The notes: generated by a model not told the origin, from the letters alone. 64,000 nucleotides of DNA from an uncultured Vicinamibacteraceae bacterium (GCA_964342185.1 CAYFER010000002.1:92946-156945), one strand, 5' to 3'. Shown: positions 3,831 to 50,347, counted from the first letter of the stretch. Program-made: numbers and translations.

Positions 3831-5939
3831 TTATTGCATCCACGCAACGACGAGCGGAGCGAAAATAACCGCCACAACACTCATTAATTTGATCAGAATA
3901 TTCAGACTCGGACCAGAAGTATCCTTAAATGGATCTCCAACGGTATCACCAATTACTGAAGCTTTATGGGCTTCCGAACCCTTGCCACCATGCTCACCCG
4001 ATTCAATGAACTTCTTAGCATTATCCCAAACACCGCCGGCATTGGCCATCATCAGAGCCATCAAGACACCAGTCACCAGCGCGCCAGCCAAGAGACCGCC
4101 CAAACCAGACACGCCAAGTAAATACCCGGTCAGAACCGGGGCCGACACCGCTAACAGACCCGGGAGGATCATCTCTCGAATAGCTGCCTTAGTCGAAATC
4201 GCGACACACCGCGCCGAATCAGGCTCCGCCTTTCCTTCGATAAGTCCTTCAATCTCACGGAACTGTCTTCGAACCTCTTCGATCATCTTGGCTGCAGAAC
4301 GACCAACTGCGTTCATAGTCAATGCCGCAAAGATGAATGGCAACATCCCGCCGATTAGCATCCCGATGAGCACATTTGGGTTATTAAGTCCCAGGTCAAG
4401 TAATCGATTATCAAAAACCTGCTCTCCGCCAGCCGCCTCAATCGCGTCAGCAGCTTTTGTTCTAAAGGTGCTAAACAGAGCCAACGCCGTTAGCGCTGCT
4501 GATCCAATGGCGAATCCTTTACCCATGGCGGCCGTGGTATTGCCTACGGCGTCGAGTGCGTCCGTCCGCTGCCTGACATACGACTCACACTTACTCATTT
4601 CAGCAATTCCGCCGGCGTTGTCAGCAACAGGGCCATAAGCGTCCACACCCAAACTGATACCAAGAGTCGAAAGCATGCCGACAGCCGCAATCGCAATGCC
4701 GTAAAGCTCGGCAAAGGCATAGCTGAAATAGATTGCCACCGCGATCACAAGGATCGGGAGACCGCACGACATCATCCCGACGCCGAGACCGGCGATGATA
4801 TTTGTTGCGGGGCCAGTTTCAGACTGTTGTGCGATATGGTGAGCGGGTGGCTTGTCCATGCCCGTGTAGTACTCCGTCAATCGGCCAATCGCAACGCCAG
4901 AGCCGAGCCCTAACAGGACACACCAGAGCACCTGCAACGGCAAATGCAACATGTACACGAGTCCATAGGCCGCCACCAGAACGATGGCCGACGCCACCAA
5001 TAAGCCGCGCTCCAAGGCGCTCCCGATTTTAGACTCATCGTCAGTGCTTACCGTGAAAGTGCCCAACATGGAAGCTATGATGCCAACACCTGCCAGAAGA
5101 ATTGGAAAAATTACGAGCGACCGCTGAAGAGAATCAAAACCTGATGCATCGATTCCCCAAAGCGCCGCAGCGGCAGTCGCACTCAATGCCCAAGCAAGCG
5201 CAATGGACGAAATGATGCTGCCGACATACGACTCAAATAGATCGGCGCCCATGCCAGCGACATCGCCGACGTTATCACCCACACTGTCAGCAATTGTCGC
5301 AGGATTTCGAGGGTCATCTTCCGGGATTCCAGCTTCGACCTTACCTGAAAGATCGCCAGCAACATCAGCAGCCTTCGTGTAAATTCCACCACCAACTCTG
5401 GCAAATAAGGCAATCGACGACGCTCCAAGAGAAAATCCGAATAACTGTTCAATAGCGATCGGCCCGTTCCCGCTTAAACCTCCAAACACGTAATAAAGAA
5501 TCGCGACACCAGATGTTCCAAGAGCAACTACAGTCAGACCCATTACGGCACCACTTGAGAATGCAACCCTCAACGCAGGAGCGAGACCAGTGGTGGCTGC
5601 GAACGTCGTTCGGACAGCCGCACCGGTAGCGGTGCGCATACCCACCCAGCCAGCAACAGCTGACAATGACGAGCCAATAAGAAAGCTCACACCGGTCAGA
5701 AGCGCATTTTCTGGTAGAAATAGGACGAGGATCACAAACATCAATCCTACAAACCCGGCCAGCACGGTGTACTCCGTACGGAGAAAAGCCATAGCTCCGG
5801 AACGGATCAACGCGGAGATGCGTTGCATCACCTCAGTTCCGGGATCACGACTGTTAATAGTTCGAATCAAAATAAAGGCAAAGACCGCCGCCGCTAAAGG
5901 CGCGCCCCATCCGAGTGCGAAGTACAGTTGCTGCTCCAT
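3831..5939 (-). CDS. hppA: Membrane-bound pyrophosphate-energised cation pump (M-PPase)
   Basis: 702 aa with about 16 TM segments. Conserved M-PPase motifs are present: [64 protein letters not shown]. Confidence 0.95.
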
Positions 5940-6047
5940 TCACTCCCCTATTGTTTTATGGTTGACTGTTTTTCGTCGGCAAGAAACCCTTCAAACTACC
6001 AGCTCAGTTTTCTCACTGTCAAGATATATCTATGCCCCGCCCACTGT

Positions 6048-6665
6048 CTATTCAGACTCCGACCCAGTCGGTTTCGTCTGCCGAGCCTTGAGATTAGTCG
6101 ACAGCGCCATACCCCCCGTCAGAAAAATCTGAATGCCATCCTGGACTGAAAGGTCAGGATACGAAACGACATCGTCCGGATAAATGTGAATGTCCCCAAA
6201 ATAAATGTGATTAGTGGGCACATACACAGAAACTAAATTTTCCGGTCCGTCTCCCCGGTCCATAACAAACCGTTTTGTCAGAAAACCCAAGACCAAACCA
6301 CGTCTCGGGTCATCGAGTAACACAACCTGCTTAAAACCCATCTGATTGTCCGAAGAGAACGCCGCAACCAACTGCTTTACTGGCCCGTACACAGCCCGAA
6401 AAACAGGCAACTTGAGAAGATACGCTTCACACCGTTGAAGGACACGGCCTCCGAGAACATTAGTCGCGATTACACCTACCAGCGTAATGACCGCAAGTAG
6501 AGTGACTAAACCAAGACCGGGAATCTCTTGCCCTAGCCAACGAGCGTACACAGGGCCCATCACTCCATCAATTACCTGAAAGAGCCACACGAACGCTGCA
6601 ACACTAATGATCAGAGGGACGGTAACGACAAGCCCCGTCACCAAACTGCGCCGAAGCCACTGCAT
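6048..6665 (-). CDS. DUF502-family membrane protein
   Basis: 205 aa, two N-terminal TM helices (LVTGLVVTVPLIISVAAFVW...), and a PVFRAVYGPVKQL motif resembling DUF502/YitT-unrelated conserved membrane proteins. Confidence 0.6.
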   Translation of the reverse strand: MQWLRRSLVTGLVVTVPLIISVAAFVWLFQVIDGVMGPVYARWLGQEIPGLGLVTLLAVITLVGVIATNVLGGRVLQRCEAYLLKLPVFRAVYGPVKQLVAAFSSDNQMGFKQVVLLDDPRRGLVLGFLTKRFVMDRGDGPENLVSVYVPTNHIYFGDIHIYPDDVVSYPDLSVQDGIQIFLTGGMALSTNLKARQTKPTGSESE

Positions 6666-6708
6666 TGCGCCTCACCTTTTTAACAGAAACTGGCCAAAAA
6701 TCCACACT

Positions 6709-7560
6709 CTAGTCGATCAGCAGAAAAAATATACATCCAGCTAAACCAAACCGATAGGCAGCAAACCCATCCAAAGAATGATTTTCAAGGTATCGGATGA
6801 AATACTTTACGGTAACGTAGCCGACACTGGCCGACGTGATGATTCCAATCGCACACAAACCGAACAATTCAGTAGGCACGTTGGTACCCACCAACTCGAT
6901 GCCCTGTCGCCCAGCAGCACCAAAGATTGCCGGAATACTAATTAGAAAAGCGAGTCGGGCTGCACTGTCTCTCCGAATACCCAATAGCATGGCAAGAGTG
7001 ATCACTGCGCCAGATCGGGAAACTCCTGGGATCAAAGCTAAGGCTTGAACCAAACCAAGAGCTAACACTTCTAGAACTGTTAAGGGCACTTCGGTTCTGT
7101 CCGCCGGTTTCAGCCGCTCCGCCATCACCATCAACACAGCACCCGCTGCAAGTGCAGTTGCCGCAACACCGACGGTCCGAAAATGTTCGGTGATGAAGTC
7201 ACCAAAAAAAACTCCTACAAACACGATGGGTAAAGTCGCTAGAATGATATTTCTCGCCATCCTTGAATTTTCATCTGACACGCCTTGCAGAAATCGAGGA
7301 ACAGATTTGACCATGATTACGATATCTCGTCTAAAAAACATCACCACGGCAATTAGAGTGCCGACGTGACACGCTACATCGAATGCCAAATTGAATTCGC
7401 CGGCGTCCCATCCGAAAACTGAACGCGCAAGAATCAGGTGTGCAGAGCTAGAAATAGGCAGAAACTCGGTCAACCCTTGTATGACCCCGAGCAGCGCAGC
7501 CTCAAACGTTGTCACATTCGTTGGTAGCAGATCGTCAAGACACCCTCGCTTTTCGGCCAT
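6709..7560 (-). CDS. uppP: Undecaprenyl-diphosphate phosphatase
   Basis: GLTEFLPISSSAHL and PGVSRSG motifs typical of BacA/UppP, 283 aa polytopic protein. The start overlaps the secF 3' end by 26 nt. Confidence 0.9.
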   Translation of the reverse strand: MAEKRGCLDDLLPTNVTTFEAALLGVIQGLTEFLPISSSAHLILARSVFGWDAGEFNLAFDVACHVGTLIAVVMFFRRDIVIMVKSVPRFLQGVSDENSRMARNIILATLPIVFVGVFFGDFITEHFRTVGVAATALAAGAVLMVMAERLKPADRTEVPLTVLEVLALGLVQALALIPGVSRSGAVITLAMLLGIRRDSAARLAFLISIPAIFGAAGRQGIELVGTNVPTELFGLCAIGIITSASVGYVTVKYFIRYLENHSLDGFAAYRFGLAGCIFFLLID

Positions 7561-8566
7561 GCCGTTTCGAGCGTTGTGCTCGCTGAGGACGACGTGACCC
7601 AGAACGAGGCGACTCCTGGGAACGCTTAGGTTCGCGATCCTGAACTGCCGAAGACGGGCTTCGTGCCGCCGCTCGCCTTTGAGTTATCGCGATAGCGGTT
7701 GACGTCGCTATGAAGATCGTAGAGTAGGTCCCACTAAAAACACCAATCAGCATCGTAATGGAAAAACCCCGAAGCACTTCCCCTCCGAAAAGAGACAGCG
7801 CTAACACAGCAAATCCTGTAGTTCCCGAGGTGATAATCGTGCGTGCAAGCGTCTGGTTAATGCTCTTGTTAACCAAGTGGTCGAATTTATCTCGTCGCAT
7901 CAACCGCAGATTCTCTCGAACTCGGTCGAACACTACGATTGAGTCATTGACCGAGTAACCGGTGATCGTCAGCATCGCTGCGACCACGTTCAATGACAGA
8001 TCGATTCCAAACAACGTTAACAATGACAAAGTGATGAGGATGTCATGAACCACCGCCACAATCGCCCCGACGCCGAAGCTAAAGCGAAATCGCAGGCCCA
8101 CATAAATTAAAATACCGGCCATCGCAAAAACGAAAGCACTAATCCCGCGCTGCTGGAGTTCCTGACCGATTACGGGTCCTACAAGGTCCCTCGAAACCAC
8201 CTCGAATGCACCAAGTCCGCTCGCCTCTAAGGTTTCAAGTACCTGCTCCGCACCTTGTTCAAGACTTGCTCCTTGCTCGGGACCCGCTTGAGGTAAGCGA
8301 ATCAAAACGCCACCACCAGAATCACCATATTGCTGCACTACTTTTTCATCGATAGCAGCTAGCGCGTCCCGGACCGACTCTTCGGTCATGGGTTGCTCAA
8401 ACTCCAGAACGACTAAAGTCCCACCAGAAAAATCGATACCAAGCGGAAGGCCTCCGCGGGTCACTATCGTAACGATGCCAATGACTATGATGACCATCGA
8501 CAGAGCTACCGCGTACCAGCGTTTCCCGATAAAATCGAACTTAGGTTCCTGTGAAAACAATGCCAT
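7535..8566 (-). CDS. secF: Protein translocase subunit SecF
   Basis: SecF motifs (GIDFSGGT, TITGYSVNDSIVVFDRVRE), six TM segments, downstream of secD. Carries an unusual roughly 45-aa Arg/Ser/Pro-rich C-terminal tail. Confidence 0.9.
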   Translation of the reverse strand: MALFSQEPKFDFIGKRWYAVALSMVIIVIGIVTIVTRGGLPLGIDFSGGTLVVLEFEQPMTEESVRDALAAIDEKVVQQYGDSGGGVLIRLPQAGPEQGASLEQGAEQVLETLEASGLGAFEVVSRDLVGPVIGQELQQRGISAFVFAMAGILIYVGLRFRFSFGVGAIVAVVHDILITLSLLTLFGIDLSLNVVAAMLTITGYSVNDSIVVFDRVRENLRLMRRDKFDHLVNKSINQTLARTIITSGTTGFAVLALSLFGGEVLRGFSITMLIGVFSGTYSTIFIATSTAIAITQRRAAARSPSSAVQDREPKRSQESPRSGSRRPQRAQRSKRHGRKARVS

Positions 8567-24954: not shown

Positions 24955-25254
24955 ATGAGAATAAAAAGCGAATCAGGTGCCCTGATGGCTCCGACCGTGC
25001 CCGGCATCACATCTCATCCAACAAAGATTGAAAGAACGATAAAAGCCATCAGCGATCACGGGGCTAACTATGTAAGCGGGTCAGTTGTGCATCTCGAAGG
25101 TGGAGCACGAAAGCACTTCATGGACTTTCTTTAAAAAGCATTTCCACGTCTTGTCGAAGGTTATGGACGACTCTACGCAGGAAAATATGCCACTAGTGTC
25201 TACCAACGTCAAGTCACGAACATATTGAAAGCGCTCAAGGAACGCTCTGACTAA
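24955..25254 (+). pseudogene. 3' remnant of a radical-SAM (SplB / Rv2578c-like) gene with an in-frame TAA
   Basis: One frame reads ...SGALMAPTVPGITSHPTKIERTIKAISDHGANYVSGSVVHLEGGARKHFMDFL*KAFPRLVEGYGRLYAGKYATSVYQRQVTNILKALKERSD*. The internal stop is at 25132-25134 and the terminal stop at 25252-25254. It resembles only the C-terminal third of that family. No CxxxCxxC-containing N-terminus is present. Confidence 0.6.
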
Positions 25255-26230
25255 GCACTACCCGGAATCCGATAAATGAACGTCGCGCGCCTGGGTCGGC
25301 CCCACCGCGGATAGCGGCACGAACGTTTCTCGAGGAATCACTATATGAACCACCACGCATAACCCAGAGCGCATCCTGGGAAAGTGCAGTGAGGTCATCG
25401 CTCGGAGGGGATGAATAGGGTTGATATGCACTGCTAGTCAACTCCCAGACATTACCACTCATATCGAATAAGCCGAATGGGCACTCGGGACAATTGAAAC
25501 TGCCAACCGGAGCAGAATCAGCGGCATCAAAATTAGCCCGGTCTCGCCTCGGGGTATCTCCCCAAGGAAAGATGCGTCCATCCGAACCCCGTGCCGCCTT
25601 CTCCCATTCTGCTTCCGTCGGTAAGCTGACATGCCAACCATTTTCTATTAATGCTCTTAGAACATTAGGCGTCGTTGGCGACCCTAACAGACTGCTCTCA
25701 AGCCATCGACAGTAAGCTAGAGCGTCCGGCCACGAAATATGAGTCACGGGATGATTGGCCGGTCTCGCTAGTGATCCGTCATCGACACGGAATCCAGTTG
25801 CTTCGACAAACATATTAAACTGCGCAACAGTAACTTCGTACCGGCCAATGTAGTAGGTTGGAAGATGTACTAACTCCCGACCACCCGACGGTACCCAACG
25901 CTCGTTGTCAAAAAGCATTTGATCGTGGTTGGGGTCACTGCCCATCAGGAACGGCCCGGCGGGAACCTCAACAAAACCCAAAAGTTCTTCATCCGGAAGA
26001 AACCAAGAATCTGGTCGGAAACCTTCAAGTTCGGACAAATCAACCCTCACCGTCGAATTGGAACTTGACGACGTGACAAGTAGCGCCGGCCGTTGAGTGT
26101 AGAGCCACGCTGACACGACGCAAATGAGTAGGATAATTACTATGCCACCGACTGGTCCACGACCGACCGCCGCGTCTGAGACATTAGAAGCCAAGTGCAG
26201 CCCCTGCCCCAGGAATCCCATCACAGGCAA
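25235..26230 (-). CDS. Membrane-anchored FGE-sulfatase (SUMF1/formylglycine-generating-enzyme-like) domain protein
   Basis: N-terminal TM (GGIVIILLICVVSAWLY). The FGE-domain hallmarks are YYIGRYEVTVAQF, HPVTHISWPDALAYCRWL, LPTEAEWEKAARG, GNVWELT, RGGSY and IGFRVV. Confidence 0.85.
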   Translation of the reverse strand: MPVMGFLGQGLHLASNVSDAAVGRGPVGGIVIILLICVVSAWLYTQRPALLVTSSSSNSTVRVDLSELEGFRPDSWFLPDEELLGFVEVPAGPFLMGSDPNHDQMLFDNERWVPSGGRELVHLPTYYIGRYEVTVAQFNMFVEATGFRVDDGSLARPANHPVTHISWPDALAYCRWLESSLLGSPTTPNVLRALIENGWHVSLPTEAEWEKAARGSDGRIFPWGDTPRRDRANFDAADSAPVGSFNCPECPFGLFDMSGNVWELTSSAYQPYSSPPSDDLTALSQDALWVMRGGSYSDSSRNVRAAIRGGADPGARRSFIGFRVVLSQSVP

Positions 26231-27827
26231 ATAACCACCGATGCTCGCACGCTCGAGCGTAGAGATCCGACTCTGACATCTCCATCAAATTACCGCCGCC
26301 CTCGCGGAGTAAGAGTCGGAGATCAAGCGGCCTTGGATTAGCTTGCTCAATCCGGCCGGGTGTCAACACATTTAGACAGCCAGCTGTAAAACGGAGTTCA
26401 CAGGCTCTCGAAAAATAACGAAGTGCTTGATCGGTATCCGCCTCGACCACATTTCCTTCGGTATAATGTTGACCCAGTTGATTACAGGCCCATCCAGAGT
26501 TATCACTGCAGTACGAAGATTCAATTTGCAGTAATCGATCGCACGCCCCACGGCGCCCATCGGCACACGCCTGCTCCCAGAAGGGAATCGTGTCACCACG
26601 GTGCCTCCCGTCAGTTGAACCTTGTAGCGTCATCACGCCAAAGAACAGAATCCAAATCGCCATATACAAAAGATTTGCTCGTTCAGGTGTCCACATAATC
26701 TGCAAGCGACTGAGACCACTCCGGGCACTAAGACTTCTAACTAATCCGTCAATCCCTTTGACACTCAAATTAAGTAAAGGGACACACAACAACTTGTCAT
26801 AGAAAGTCGGTATGCCGATAGCACCGAGCAAAGTATAAAGACCAAACACACCAACGCCGTATAAAACACCGAAGAGAACCTTCCCAATCTGTGTGCGTGG
26901 CGAAGTTGATGGGTCAGTGACCAGTAAATGAAGACCAAGAAATACCGCCGTTGGAATCTCAGAATCGATGAAATACGGAGTTCCCGTTAGCGTCGAGTAC
27001 AAGGCGCTAGAACCAAACAGAACTATTGCTGCCGACCCAGCCACTAGGGTAATCGAGAAAAAATACATGACCACCAAGCCAATCAAGAACAAGAACAGGT
27101 AGATCTGAGGTGCAAGGCTCAAAGTCGTGGCGATCTCTTGGCCAAAAGTAAGACTCGTCGTATCAGTAGCAACAAGAATGAGAGAGAAGATGGCGAGCGA
27201 AAATGCCGAAGGGTTAAAGATGTGGACACGCCGACCATCACGATTCCAACGCACATACTCCTTCCCTAAGAATCCAATGGCGATCATCACAAATTGCAGA
27301 TAAAACCAGTCATCTCTGAACCAGAGAAACAGATTGGTACTGAAGATAATCGGGAAAGGACCAAATCCAAGAACATAGGTCTTCCGCCGCGACCACGACA
27401 GCAGCATGTCAAACGCATAGGCAAACAAAAGCTGTGCTACCAACAACCACGTATGGTCATAGACCGGGCGCCAGTAATAACCCCAGTAGGCAAACACCAT
27501 CGCCTGTACGGCGGCCTGAATGTAATGCTGTGATCTCAACTCGACTGTTAAAGTTTTTGGGGCTGCCGTCCGTTTTACCTCTAAGTAGAGCAAGACCTGC
27601 CACACAGCGATCATTACGGCTGCTGACCAAATGGATCGACTGAGGATCGGGTTCTGACTGATTCGAGGAACTAGGGAAACCCCGAAAAGAGCAACCGGCA
27701 ACCAGATTGAGACCCACAAATTCCAAACAACGGACAGATCACTCTCTCGTAGAGCTGATCGGTTCCGATCCTTGGTTTGCGTACGATGTTGCTTCTGTCT
27801 GCGCTGTCGTTTTCCAGCTGTCATCAC
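26184..27827 (-). CDS. Polytopic membrane protein (RnfD/NqrB-like motifs) with a C-terminal Cys-rich Sel1-like repeat domain; function unknown
   Basis: About 10 predicted TM segments. Motifs HIFNPSAF and LLVTDPSTSPRTQIGKVLFG are reminiscent of the RnfD/NqrB superfamily. The C-terminal roughly 150 aa contains four Cx7C pairs. The gene overlaps the downstream FGE gene by 47 nt. Confidence 0.6.
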   Translation of the reverse strand: MMTAGKRQRRQKQHRTQTKDRNRSALRESDLSVVWNLWVSIWLPVALFGVSLVPRISQNPILSRSIWSAAVMIAVWQVLLYLEVKRTAAPKTLTVELRSQHYIQAAVQAMVFAYWGYYWRPVYDHTWLLVAQLLFAYAFDMLLSWSRRKTYVLGFGPFPIIFSTNLFLWFRDDWFYLQFVMIAIGFLGKEYVRWNRDGRRVHIFNPSAFSLAIFSLILVATDTTSLTFGQEIATTLSLAPQIYLFLFLIGLVVMYFFSITLVAGSAAIVLFGSSALYSTLTGTPYFIDSEIPTAVFLGLHLLVTDPSTSPRTQIGKVLFGVLYGVGVFGLYTLLGAIGIPTFYDKLLCVPLLNLSVKGIDGLVRSLSARSGLSRLQIMWTPERANLLYMAIWILFFGVMTLQGSTDGRHRGDTIPFWEQACADGRRGACDRLLQIESSYCSDNSGWACNQLGQHYTEGNVVEADTDQALRYFSRACELRFTAGCLNVLTPGRIEQANPRPLDLRLLLREGGGNLMEMSESDLYARACEHRWLFACDGIPGAGAALGF

Positions 27828-27992: not shown

Positions 27993-28838
27993 CTAAGTCG
28001 ATCCAAGTAACCGCTCAATCCGCTCCTTAGTTGGCGGATGGGTACTAAAAAGCGCCATCAAGCCTCGACCTGAAAACGGTTTCATTATGAACATATGCGC
28101 GGTAGCTGGATTGGCCTCCATCGGAATTCGGCGGGCTGCCGCTTCAATCTTTTTTAGAGCATCAGCAAGGCCGTACGGACTTCCAACAATTTCAGCCGCA
28201 CCTCGGTCAGCAGCAAACTCCCGCGACCTCGAAATAGCAGCCTGAATGAGCATCGCTGACAGCGGCGCAAAAATCATCATTCCGATCAGTGCAACCGGGT
28301 TCGAACCACCACGTTCATCTCTTCCCCCAAAACCACCAAAAATTGCTGCAAACTGGGCCCACCTAGCGATCATCATCACGGTTGCGGCAACTGTGGCTGC
28401 AATCGAGCTAATCAATATGTCCCGATTTTTCACGTGAGCGAGCTCATGTGCAATAACACCTTCAAGCTCACGCTCATCTAGAACCTGAAGGATTCCTTCA
28501 GTCGCAGCAACTGCCGCATTTCTTGGATTCCGACCCGTGGCGAACGCGTTGGGCGATTTATCAGGAATTACAAAAACGCGTGGCATCGGCAAACCGGCCC
28601 GTTCAGACAATCGCTTGGTGAGTTGGTGTAATGGATGCTCCGGACCGACTGCGGCTGCTCGATACATTTTCAAGACAACCTTGTCAGAAAACCAATACGA
28701 TCCAAAGTTCATCACCACCGCCAACCCAAAAGCCATCAGCAAGCCACTTTGACCGCCAAGCAACTCGCCTATCATCAGTAAAAGGCCACTAAGTAAACCT
28801 AGAAGAAACACCGTCTTGACTGTGTTTTCCATACTCAA
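27993..28838 (-). CDS. htpX: Zinc metalloprotease HtpX (peptidase M48)
   Basis: HELAHVKNRD zinc motif, four TM segments, 281 aa. The C-terminal FSTHPPTKERI is typical of HtpX. Confidence 0.92.
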   Translation of the reverse strand: MSMENTVKTVFLLGLLSGLLLMIGELLGGQSGLLMAFGLAVVMNFGSYWFSDKVVLKMYRAAAVGPEHPLHQLTKRLSERAGLPMPRVFVIPDKSPNAFATGRNPRNAAVAATEGILQVLDERELEGVIAHELAHVKNRDILISSIAATVAATVMMIARWAQFAAIFGGFGGRDERGGSNPVALIGMMIFAPLSAMLIQAAISRSREFAADRGAAEIVGSPYGLADALKKIEAAARRIPMEANPATAHMFIMKPFSGRGLMALFSTHPPTKERIERLLGST

Positions 28839-28868: not shown

Positions 28869-30014
28869 TCACTTCATCTCTCGCACTCGATCTACTAATC
28901 CGGCTACCATCGCGGCACGCCATGGAAGTTCAGCGATTTCAACATGCTCATGAAGTGCGTGAGCCCCGGCTCCAACAGCCCCTAGACCGTCGAGCGTCGG
29001 AATACCAAGCGAAGCAGTTAAATTTCCGTCCGAGGCTCCTCCAGTAGGTCCCTCACCTAATTCATAACCAAGTTCCGCCGCCACAGCTTTCGCCAGTTCG
29101 TAGAGCGCTAATACCTCCTCCGTTCGTTCGAATGGAGGACGCGAAAAGCCACCAGTTAACTGAACCGATGTGCCTGGAATCGAAGGTTTAAGACCATTGA
29201 GCGTCTTCTCAACAGTTAGGCAATCCTCAGCAGACTCAACGCGAACATCAATGAAACAACGGGCCTGCTCAGCTACTACGTTTGGAACGCTTCCGCCCTC
29301 CACCAAGCCCACGTTGACCAAAATGCCAGCTTCACGCAGTGGTTCCAAAGCAACAACCTGACGCGCCAACTCATGAATGGCACTTGCACCATTCTGCGGT
29401 TCAATACCGGCATGCGCTGAAACACCTTCTACTTTTAGTTCAAACTCGCCAACACCCTTCCGTGCGGTCTTCGCAGCTCCTCCGGGCAGTGATGGTTCCA
29501 AAACTAGAACCGCATTGCTGCGACCCGCCTCCATCTCAATAAGCTCACTCGATGTCACGCTACCGCGCTCCTCGTCGGAAGTCAGTAATACAACAACGCG
29601 TTGTCCGAACAGAGCGCCCTGCGCTTTAAGCGCGCGAATCGCAAGGATCGCAATCGCGATACCCGCCTTCATGTCATATACCCCGGGTCCATAGAGGCGT
29701 CCTTGGTGTTTATAGACCGGCATCCGGTCAGTTTGGCCAGTGGGCCACACCGTGTCGAAGTGACCAAGTAGCAAAACTTGTGGTGAACCATTTCCAAAAG
29801 TGGCTCGGATATGATTACCGGCTGAATCTTGAGCAATCTGATCAACTTCGGCGCCAATACTTTCAAAAAGGCTGACAAGTTCAACTCCGCACCTGTCGAC
29901 TGCCACTTTGTCAGGCGTGGGCGATTCCAATCGAGCCAACGAAACCGTAGTGTCAATGAGCCAAGATCGCTCTGACACACAAAACTCAAGGGCTTTATTC
30001 AAATTGAATGTCAT
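28869..30014 (-). CDS. M20-family metallopeptidase (carboxypeptidase G2 / glutamate carboxypeptidase-like)
   Basis: LLLGHFDTVWP, GPGVYDMKAG and TSDEERGS metal-ligand motifs of M20/M25/M40 enzymes, 381 aa. Confidence 0.8.
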   Translation of the reverse strand: MTFNLNKALEFCVSERSWLIDTTVSLARLESPTPDKVAVDRCGVELVSLFESIGAEVDQIAQDSAGNHIRATFGNGSPQVLLLGHFDTVWPTGQTDRMPVYKHQGRLYGPGVYDMKAGIAIAILAIRALKAQGALFGQRVVVLLTSDEERGSVTSSELIEMEAGRSNAVLVLEPSLPGGAAKTARKGVGEFELKVEGVSAHAGIEPQNGASAIHELARQVVALEPLREAGILVNVGLVEGGSVPNVVAEQARCFIDVRVESAEDCLTVEKTLNGLKPSIPGTSVQLTGGFSRPPFERTEEVLALYELAKAVAAELGYELGEGPTGGASDGNLTASLGIPTLDGLGAVGAGAHALHEHVEIAELPWRAAMVAGLVDRVREMK

Positions 30015-30605: not shown

Positions 30606-32315
<1,710 letters not shown>

Positions 32316-32417
32316 TCACTCGCCTTCTCTTTACGAAATATATCATGGCCGTTCGGTACTTCGCGGCACCAAAGGGCTAGAACGGAGCTAAGGGATTCTC
32401 TATAGTAAAATTGTTAC

Positions 32418-32870
32418 ATGCGTATCGCGCTCGGATCGGATCACGCTGGTGTTGAACTTAAAGCGCTGATCGTGCGGGAACTCGATGATCGCGAATTCGA
32501 TTGTCACGACTTTGGACCCTCTACTGATTCTCCGGTCGACTACCCTGACTATGCTGCTCGTGTGGCCGAAAGCGTCTCTTCCGGACAATTCGACAGAGGC
32601 ATTCTGATCTGCGGAACAGGAGTTGGTATGGCGATTGCCGCAAATAAGGTGCCGGGTGTCAGGGCTGCACAAGTTAATAATAGTGATGGCGCTCGCCTCA
32701 GTCGCGAGCATAATAACGCCAATATACTCACCCTGGGAGCTCGTTATACTTCTGTTGCTGAGGCATTAAAAATAGTGAACGCGTTTTTGGAGACACCTTT
32801 TAGTGGCGGTCGACACCAGCGCCGAATAGACAAAATCATGGCGCTCGAGCAAGGTGACATATCTCCGTAA
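32418..32870 (+). CDS. rpiB: Ribose-5-phosphate isomerase B
   Basis: MRIALGSDHAGVELK, ILICGTGVGMAIAANK and HNNANILTLGAR motifs, 150 aa. Confidence 0.92.
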   Translation: MRIALGSDHAGVELKALIVRELDDREFDCHDFGPSTDSPVDYPDYAARVAESVSSGQFDRGILICGTGVGMAIAANKVPGVRAAQVNNSDGARLSREHNNANILTLGARYTSVAEALKIVNAFLETPFSGGRHQRRIDKIMALEQGDISP

Positions 32871-32924
32871 GACAACTCCGGCCGCAACACTTAATTTAGG
32901 ATATAAACTCCAGAGACAACTCAT

Positions 32925-50271: not shown

Positions 50272-50347
50272 GGGCCCATAGCTCAGCGGTCAGAGCCGCC
50301 GGCTCATAACCGGCTTGTCCCAGGTTCGAATCCTGGTGGGCCCACCA
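50272..50347 (+). tRNA. tRNA with anticodon CAT (elongator Met, or Ile2 if lysidine-modified), CCA encoded
   Basis: Manual cloverleaf: acceptor GGGCCCA/TGGGCCC, D stem GCTC/GAGC, anticodon stem GCCGG/CCGGC with loop CTCATAA, T stem CCAGG/CCTGG with loop TTCGAAT, discriminator A, then CCA. The G1:C72 pair excludes an initiator. Confidence 0.93.

Follow-up and report, generated by a model that had tools for sequence, protein, structure and literature searches.

A conserved two-gene membrane module that pairs an RnfD/NqrB-like protein bearing a Sel1-like tail with an FGE-fold protein in an uncultured Vicinamibacteraceae bacterium

Here we report the analysis of two overlapping genes, designated A and B, in a 64,000-nt stretch of DNA from an uncultured Vicinamibacteraceae bacterium (GCA_964342185.1, CAYFER010000002.1:92946-156945). 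This whole stretch is referred to as the window, and all positions are counted from its first nucleotide. Gene A encodes a polytopic membrane protein whose layout runs from an Arg/Lys-rich cytoplasmic N-terminus through a 13-helix core to a Sel1-like tail that is predicted to be periplasmic. Gene B encodes a protein that is anchored in the membrane by its N-terminus and continues through a Ser-rich linker into a domain with the fold of formylglycine-generating enzyme (FGE). The pair had been singled out by an earlier reading of the DNA (the original prediction), whose claims are taken up below where the results bear on them. The two genes constitute a self-contained, conserved and uncharacterised two-gene inner-membrane/periplasmic module, whose parts have known folds but whose way of combining them is new and conserved over a wide range. 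The anatomy given in the original prediction proved correct. The features of the locus are the following.

26184..27827, minus strand: gene A, 547-aa polytopic membrane protein (open reading frame, ORF; 546 aa if the ATG at 27824 is used)
26625..27737, minus strand: RnfD/NqrB-like core of A, residues 31-401 (AlphaFold2 (AF2) model, Foldseek, hhalign, PF03116 matches in relatives)
27207..27218, minus strand: FNPS motif of A, residues 204-207 (invariant columns; hhalign on FNPA of RsxD)
27105..27167, minus strand: short periplasmic loop of A, residues 221-241, at the place of the five-helix linker (loop length and alignment)
26898..26918, minus strand: TDPSTSP motif of A, residues 304-310 (residue-level alignment to RnfD)
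26187..26624, minus strand: Sel1-like (Hcp-type) tail of A, residues 402-547 (similarity to HcpC and HcpB)
26541-26567, minus strand: Cx7C pair 1, CADGRRGAC, residues 421-429
26484-26510, minus strand: Cx7C pair 2, CSDNSGWAC, residues 440-448
26376-26402, minus strand: Cx7C pair 3, CELRFTAGC, residues 476-484
26223-26249, minus strand: Cx7C pair 4, CEHRWLFAC, residues 527-535
26184..26230, minus strand: overlap of A and B (47 nt for the TTG start at 26230; 38 nt for the ATG start at 26221)
25235..26230, minus strand: gene B, 331 aa, or 328 aa if begun at the ATG (26221) (ORF, public gene call, Pfam)
26102..26158, minus strand: transmembrane anchor of B, residues 25-43 (hydropathy 2.42)
25256..25978, minus strand: FGE-sulfatase-fold domain of B, residues 85-325 (PF03781)
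25481..25492, minus strand: CPEC (CxxC) of B, residues 247-250, in the loop immediately ahead of the GLFDMSGNVWE strand

The window matches marine Vicinamibacteraceae (Acidobacteriota) assemblies, including Tara Oceans run ERR599156 and one further locus (L005, 96% identity), and public contigs carry an identical 546-aa protein A. The A family is large, with more than 6000 database matches and 444 representatives at E<1e-30 after clustering at 50%, and its conservation across phyla is unusually high (59-70% identity). The clade to which the window protein belongs carries the signature FSTNLFLWFRDDWFY. No Pfam or NCBIfam model matched protein A above its curated cut-off, and full-text literature searches returned no paper on the A family or on a pair made of an RnfD-like protein with Sel1 repeats and an FGE-type protein; all that came up was a different system, the Nqr/Rnf-like complex of PMC11334425.

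The association of the two genes was assessed in GTDB, using one genome per species. The A family is represented there by at least 588 matching stretches, from which 80 loci with A orthologues 59-96% identical to the window protein were taken for neighbourhood counts. These loci span Vicinamibacteria, other Acidobacteriota, Terriglobia, Gemmatimonadota and Gammaproteobacteria (Pseudomonadales/Pseudohongiella). A B orthologue (48-66% identical) lies directly downstream on the same strand at 77 of the 80 loci; two of the remaining three have no B within 6 kb, and the third runs off the end of its contig. The median gap between the stop of A and the start of B is -4 nt (75 orthologous loci), and no neighbour other than B recurs across the 80 loci. 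Two independent loci encode A and B as a single fused ORF, namely L046 from Acidobacteriota (805 aa, 5935-8352) and L051 from Gemmatimonadota (870 aa, 5743-8355). The conserved gene unit postulated in the original prediction is thus borne out by the adjacency, the short gap and the two fusions.

The fusions also bear on topology. In L046 and in L051, the stretch that joins the Sel1 tail to the FGE domain is free of hydrophobic segments, and the anchor of B is likewise absent; since no helix intervenes, tail and domain lie in the same compartment. That the two face the same side, a point that the original prediction had raised, is supported both by these helix-free fusions and by the distribution of Lys and Arg residues in the loops of A described below. 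The junction of the L051 fusion has cost this protein its fourth Cx7C pair.

Within the window, the length of the overlap depends on the start codon of B. The 47 nt given in the original prediction are real for the longest ORF, which begins with the TTG at 26230, whereas the public gene call at the ATG reduces the overlap to 38 nt, and the last in-frame start before the anchor (TTG, residue 13) still leaves 11 nt. Because every in-frame start of B ahead of the anchor overlaps A, some overlap is unavoidable, and the possibility that it is purely an artefact of the start call was rejected. The codons of the fourth, invariant Cx7C pair of A (26223-26249) reach into the overlap, where conserved C-terminal codons of A also encode, in another frame, the beginning of B.

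The core of A is predicted to consist of two extra N-terminal helices, an RnfD-like body of about ten helices and one extra C-terminal helix. Protein A itself matched PF03116 (NQR2_RnfD_RnfE) with an E-value of 1.6e-3 and 18.3 bits, below the gathering score of 27.7, and the NCBIfam rnfD models gave 15-17 bits against cut-offs of 200-400 (TIGR01946, 15 versus 207). Among 28 diverse relatives (31-72% identical), 24 matched PF03116 at E<=0.01, the best with an E-value of 6.8e-7, and at least one relative exceeded the gathering score (P0123, 28.4 bits). Profile searches of the PDB with whole-family alignments were dominated by Sel1 matches, with RnfD at E-values of 4e-4 to 0.07 overall; when a core-only profile was searched against the whole PDB, RnfD was the sole match (E 0.04-0.07). 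As these scores were weak, profile-profile comparison was needed for confident RnfD homology. The family profile aligned with RsxD of E. coli in hhalign with a probability of 90.8% and an E-value of 1.2e-6 (A 294-367 on RsxD 278-346). A local hhalign comparison of 103 family cores with 11 RnfD/NqrB sequences from public plasmid records gave a probability of 93.5% and an E-value of 2.4e-7 over 254 aligned columns (A 49-372 on RsxD 4-351).

Structure prediction pointed to the same fold class. A first AF2 model based on 32 close homologues was unusable (predicted local distance difference test score, pLDDT, 51), and the core was remodelled with 132 more diverse sequences, which yielded a pLDDT of 89.5 and a predicted TM-score (pTM) of 0.90 for residues 30-410. 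The top Foldseek matches of this model in the PDB were Rh glycoproteins, NqrB and RnfD (probability 1.0, E 1.6e-3 to 7e-2, TM-scores 0.40-0.45), and AmtB was also among them. NqrB and RnfD are themselves known to resemble Amt and urea channels (PMC10643135, PMC9588780). The core of A is a real but distant homologue of RnfD/NqrB that probably belongs to the same fold class and falls outside the family by curated thresholds. The relation to RnfD/NqrB claimed in the original prediction therefore holds by the PF03116 matches of the relatives, the hhalign probabilities and the Foldseek ranking. In the window protein itself, PF03116 and Sel1 both remain under their gathering scores.

The helices of the AF2 model correspond to 13 membrane spans, and with the N-terminus inside, the loops contain 22 Lys/Arg residues on the inside versus 3 on the outside. 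The N- and C-termini of RnfD are both cytoplasmic (PMC9588780), and the one extra C-terminal helix of A would therefore bring its tail to the outside, so that a periplasmic tail is predicted. The tail is significantly similar to HcpC (1ouv, E 1.6e-16) and HcpB (1klx, E 2e-10) of Helicobacter; Pfam Sel1 matched A with an E-value of 4e-5 and 24.4 bits, below the gathering score of 30.7, and exceeded it in relatives. All four Cx7C pairs of the Sel1/Hcp-type tail that had been noted in the original prediction were found. They stand in the Hcp repeat register, the starts of pairs 2 and 3 being 36 residues apart, and the eight Cys residues are invariant in 32 homologues (64-91% identity). The invariant Cys residues and the Hcp homology fit a periplasmic disulfide-bonded adaptor, and DsbA-like genes beside distant relatives of A count toward a disulfide-bonded tail as well. 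HcpB and HcpC are soluble, secreted proteins, whereas the two to four repeats of A are fused to a polytopic membrane protein.

The two motifs highlighted in the original prediction, HIFNPSAF and LLVTDPSTSPRTQIGKVLFG, are both present in the ORF translation of A. Residues N205 and P206 are invariant throughout the family, and D305 is nearly so. The FNPS motif falls on the FNPA of RsxD in the local hhalign alignment, in a stretch of low confidence. The riboflavin ligands G198, N200, N203 and A205 of NqrB spell G-x-N-x-x-N-P-A (PMC10643135), which reads GQNPFNPAM in RsxD, and A has RRVHIFNPS at this place. D305 aligns with D248 of Clostridium tetanomorphum RnfD and with the Asp of the TDP motif in RsxD. 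Mutagenesis primers identify D346 of NqrB as the Asp of the same ATDP motif (PMC10643135), and because this motif is common to both proteins, D305 of A is equated with D346, which is linked to riboflavin by a pair of hydrogen bonds (PMC10643135). D248 of RnfD, together with Asn124, has been assigned to riboflavin and to a postulated Na+ site (PMC9588780). The alignments and the ligand data together imply that the two motifs correspond to the riboflavin/Na+ site of NqrB and RnfD.

The canonical features of covalent flavin binding are missing. In RnfD and NqrB, a 'five-helix linker' of 50-60 residues bears the threonine to which flavin mononucleotide (FMN) is covalently bound (PMC9588780), whereas the corresponding periplasmic loop of A has 21 residues. 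Neither A nor any of the 132 family members contains the canonical flavinylation motif of ApbE, D..[ST][GS]A[ST]. A Thr/Ser residue (T224 in A) sits in the alignment column of the FMN threonine, in a low-confidence stretch and in a non-canonical context. No rnf or nqr partner genes lie near A in the window, and none recur at the 80 loci. The idea that A serves within an Rnf or Nqr complex was rejected for the lack of these partner genes and of the canonical FMN motif. The 'flavin-type module' of the original prediction can thus be retained for the riboflavin/Na+-site motifs, but not for the covalent-FMN motif, the full linker or the Rnf/Nqr partners.

Protein B matched PF03781 with an E-value of 1.4e-47 and 162.9 bits (gathering score 23.3) over profile positions 4-254 of 255, and this match, together with the N-terminal anchor, substantiates the proposed membrane-anchored FGE-domain protein. 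The B family is as large and as conserved as the A family, and many B family members sit on contigs whose lengths equal those of contigs with A matches. The N-terminal ~65 residues (anchor and linker) are not conserved among the orthologues. The motifs that had been described as a full set (HPVTHISW, EAEWEKAARG, GNVWELT and RGGSY) are present and mark the fold, but the catalytic Cys pair is absent. In the human and actinobacterial enzymes, the catalytic copper-binding Cys pair of FGE lies C-terminal to RGGS. Protein B has Cys residues at positions 37, 174, 247 and 250 only. Downstream of RGGS, where the sequence is SYSDSSRNVRAAIRGG (SYSDSSRNVRAAIRGGADPG), a Cys pair is lacking, as is any Cys beyond residue 250, which settles in the negative the check for a catalytic pair suggested in the original prediction. 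C247 and C250 form a family-specific CxxC and are each conserved in at least 95% of 80 B orthologues. The CPEC loop in which they lie aligns to a Cys-free stretch of SUMF2.

The solved relatives nearest to B by sequence are ToxD, CalU17, SUMF2/pFGE and PorK. ToxD, CalU17 and SUMF2 share the FGE fold with B and likewise have no Cys pair after RGGS in the alignments; a literature search on ToxD returned nothing on its mechanism. PvdO and PorK are periplasmic proteins. Unlike ToxD, CalU17, SUMF2, PvdO and PorK, B has a transmembrane anchor, a CxxC of its own and an RnfD-like partner. In comparisons with NCBIfam equivalogs, B scored 91.7 against a cut-off of 350 for GldK (TIGR03525) and 56 against 500 for PvdO (E 3e-15); for EgtB (90 versus 360) and SenA (88 versus 420), only the C-terminal part of the model was matched. 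No DinB-like domain is present in B, as the ~84 residues before the FGE fold consist of the anchor and the Ser-rich linker. Three assignments were consequently discarded: a sulfoxide or selenoxide synthase of the EgtB/OvoA/SenA type, on account of the missing DinB domain and scores far under the cut-offs; PorK/GldK, on account of the score (91.7 versus 350), the transmembrane N-terminus and the lack of gld/por genes nearby; and a true FGE, on account of the missing catalytic Cys pair. Lacking the Cys pair and the DinB domain, B cannot work like FGE or EgtB and, judged by its sequence, is not an enzyme of either type by any known mechanism.

As stated in the original prediction, there is no sulfatase among the neighbours of A and B in the window, which comprise rml dTDP-sugar genes, LptD, an M48 (HtpX-like) peptidase, an M20 peptidase and ThiC; nor does a sulfatase occur in the gene clusters that recur around A at the 80 loci. 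As far as the gene content and the residues tell, A and B are not a sulfatase-maturation system.

On balance, we consider it somewhat probable that A and B form a dedicated inner-membrane two-protein complex that faces the periplasm and in which the core of A supports or gates B. Protein A would be a 13-helix descendant of RnfD/NqrB that has lost the covalent-FMN loop and the Rnf/Nqr partners and has kept the Asn of FNPS and the Asp of TDP, and its extra C-terminal helix would carry a disulfide-locked Sel1 adaptor to the periplasm. Protein B, held by its one-helix anchor, would position the FGE-fold domain in the same compartment, where the Sel1 tail may dock this domain over the side of the core that faces the periplasm. 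Protein A may, through its core, move charge across or within the membrane, either as an ion or as electrons that travel via a non-covalent flavin in the FNPS/TDP pocket. Such charge movement could support or gate the binding or the oxidative chemistry of B on a periplasmic or envelope substrate. The role in envelope modification or sensing suggested in the original prediction is a candidate one. The data show the homology and fold of the individual parts, the topology parity, the loss of the features of FGE, EgtB and canonical FMN attachment, the conserved operon and the fusions, and from these the docking via the Sel1 tail, a ligand in the FNPS/TDP pocket and the target of B are inferred.

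Several points weigh against a complex of this kind. The contact between the Sel1 tail and B is putative. The sequence similarity to RnfD is confident over only ~70 residues, and the likeness of the remaining core consists of a low-confidence profile alignment and of TM-scores of 0.40-0.45, which are below 0.5. The FNPS and TDP motifs could persist as structural helix caps and not as ligand binders. It is not evident how electrons would reach the periplasm, since A has neither a cytoplasmic electron-input domain nor a second cofactor site that could be recognised. The fusions at L046 and L051 come from metagenome-assembled genomes, in which an assembly error is conceivable.

A further point concerns the relatives of A outside the A-B clade. 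A sister clade has a core that is ~50% identical, the signature FSINLFLWFKPDWFY and tails made of Sel1 or tetratricopeptide (TPR) repeats, and no adjacent FGE gene was found at any of its 80 metagenome loci, ~46 of which have enough downstream sequence. A distant clade (P0200 and P0274, ~34% identical; L085:4208-7821 and L087:4226-8590) likewise has no FGE-fold partner; its A gene abuts an upstream FG-GAP/UnbV_ASPIC (CRTAC1-like) gene with which it shares a start/stop base, and a DsbA-like gene is located near it. The lack of an FGE partner in the sister clades implies that the function of the A core is independent of B. The same core is found with TPR tails (P0144, P0153, P0162, P0191 and P0251), with an ankyrin tail (P0170) and elsewhere with longer Sel1 arrays, and the extracytoplasmic adaptor tail appears to be interchangeable among Sel1, TPR and ankyrin repeats. 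The absence of the FGE gene from the sister clades suggests that the conserved invention is the RnfD-like core with a periplasmic solenoid, and that one clade acquired the FGE partner.

Other genes recur loosely near A in the sister clade. At loci L090-L169, 24 of 75 neighbourhoods contain a secreted protein of ~345 aa without a Pfam match, and 17 of 75 contain a DUF6152 protein, in variable orientation. A possibly related protein occurs at 13 loci of the A-B clade.

A tentative alternative, which we regard as unlikely, is that the pair is a quinone-linked periplasmic oxidoreductase. A PvdO-like B would act as a dehydrogenase or thiol oxidoreductase by means of its CxxC, and a non-covalent riboflavin in the FNPS/TDP pocket of A would wire B to the quinone pool. 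The pair would then be derived, in minimal form, from the branch of Na+-NQR that runs from FMN via riboflavin to quinone. The conservation of the CxxC of B accords with this idea, as does the description of PvdO, an FGE-fold protein that B matches with an E-value of 3e-15, as a periplasmic dihydropyoverdine dehydrogenase in NCBIfam. Protein A shares motifs with the riboflavin ligands D346, N200, N203 and A205 of NqrB, quinone binding in NqrB takes place at the rim of this very subunit (PMC10643135), and outward electron transfer has been reported for a system with an NqrB/RnfD-like domain that lacks the FMN threonine (PMC11334425). However, the flavin, quinone and haem sites are putative only, the loss of the periplasmic FMN loop would leave a long gap between a riboflavin on the cytoplasmic side and B, the conserved neighbourhood contains no ApbE or FMN_bind gene, and the CxxC is possibly a mere structural disulfide. 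In its boldest form, to which we give equally little credence, this proposal makes the module a minimal transmembrane redox device, in which A with a non-covalent flavin links the quinone pool to a CxxC-bearing FGE-fold oxidoreductase. If true, the device would represent a new O2-independent electron sink for the FGE fold, and Acidobacteriota, Gemmatimonadota and marine Gammaproteobacteria would be seen to employ the ion/flavin module of Rnf/Nqr in a new way.

It is quite unlikely that A is a channel for an ion or small solute, either like Amt/Rh and urea channels or along the Na+ path of NqrB/RnfD, with a non-catalytic B as its sensing or gating cap. Rh glycoproteins and AmtB are among the top Foldseek matches of A, but the TM-scores reach only 0.40-0.45, and the twin-His and Phe-gate signatures of Amt/Rh proteins were not identified in A. 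A Na+ path would agree with the proposed role of NqrB and RnfD as Na+-translocating subunits and with the Asp/Asn pair at the postulated Na+ site of RnfD (PMC9588780, PMC10643135). The relatives of A without B point to an autonomous function of A, and FGE folds without Cys, such as PorK, serve in structure or binding; the very strong conservation of the surface motifs and the CxxC of B, however, suggests more than a passive cap. Finally, that B is a genuine FGE and A an unrelated neighbouring membrane protein is scarcely credible despite the strong PF03781 match and the public annotation of orthologues as 'formylglycine-generating enzyme required for sulfatase activity', given the lack of a Cys pair after RGGS and of a nearby sulfatase, the tight synteny and the fusions with A.

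The preferred reading of A and B as a dedicated two-protein complex can be set against several known systems. The likeness to RnfD and NqrB lies in the homologous core, the best structural matches and the FNP(A/S) and TDP motifs; A differs from them by three extra helices and the periplasmic Sel1 tail, by the lack of a canonical covalent-FMN motif, by the short loop and by the absence of partner genes. The glycosyltransferases of the TMTC/PMT type (GT-C) resemble A in architecture, as they combine a membrane core with an extracytoplasmic TPR solenoid that recruits a partner or substrate. The fold of A differs from theirs, and no glycosyltransferase was found among the Foldseek or Pfam matches. 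The closest published precedent is a two-subunit Nqr/Rnf-like complex, in which an NqrB/RnfD-like domain that lacks the flavinylated Thr is paired with an extracytosolic partner held by a membrane anchor (mSystems 2024, PMC11334425). The membrane subunit of this complex has a C-terminal cytosolic NAD-binding domain (PF00175), and its partner is a flavinylated NqrC/RnfG-like protein (PMC11334425). It shares with A and B a stand-alone membrane domain that lacks the FMN threonine and adjoins an anchored extracytosolic partner. In contrast, A ends in periplasmic Sel1 repeats, B has an FGE fold, and no FMN_bind or NAD-binding domain was detected in either protein with Pfam.

The A family shows that the RnfD/NqrB module has persisted independently of Rnf and Nqr, as a core that stands alone and bears apparently interchangeable periplasmic tails. 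In one clade, A has gained a partner that has the FGE fold yet cannot itself be an FGE. Knowledge of the function of the pair would explain a common 'conserved hypothetical' pair of abundant soil and marine bacteria and would correct routine mis-annotations as 'RnfD' and as 'formylglycine-generating enzyme required for sulfatase activity'. It could also show whether the Asn/Asp pocket of RnfD/NqrB works without the remaining complex.

The other features of the window considered here are the following.

27993-28838, minus strand: M48 (HtpX-like) peptidase, upstream of A at a distance of 165 nt
28869-30014, minus strand: M20 peptidase, upstream of A and on the same strand
30606-32309, minus strand: thiC
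50272-50344, plus strand: tRNA gene

The adjacency of the M48 and M20 peptidase genes to A is absent at L004, the one other locus with upstream genes listed, and from the recurrent neighbour clusters. PADLOC returned no match, hence no link to a defence system, and scans for promoters and terminators were at chance level. In bacteria, thiC is commonly controlled by a riboswitch. A thiamine pyrophosphate (TPP, THI-box) riboswitch upstream of thiC was detected neither at the Rfam gathering score in the entire window nor at E<=1 in the region 32200-32900; since riboswitch control is common for this gene, a thiC without a detectable TPP riboswitch may be unusual. The tRNA gene is the sole Rfam match in the 64-kb window.

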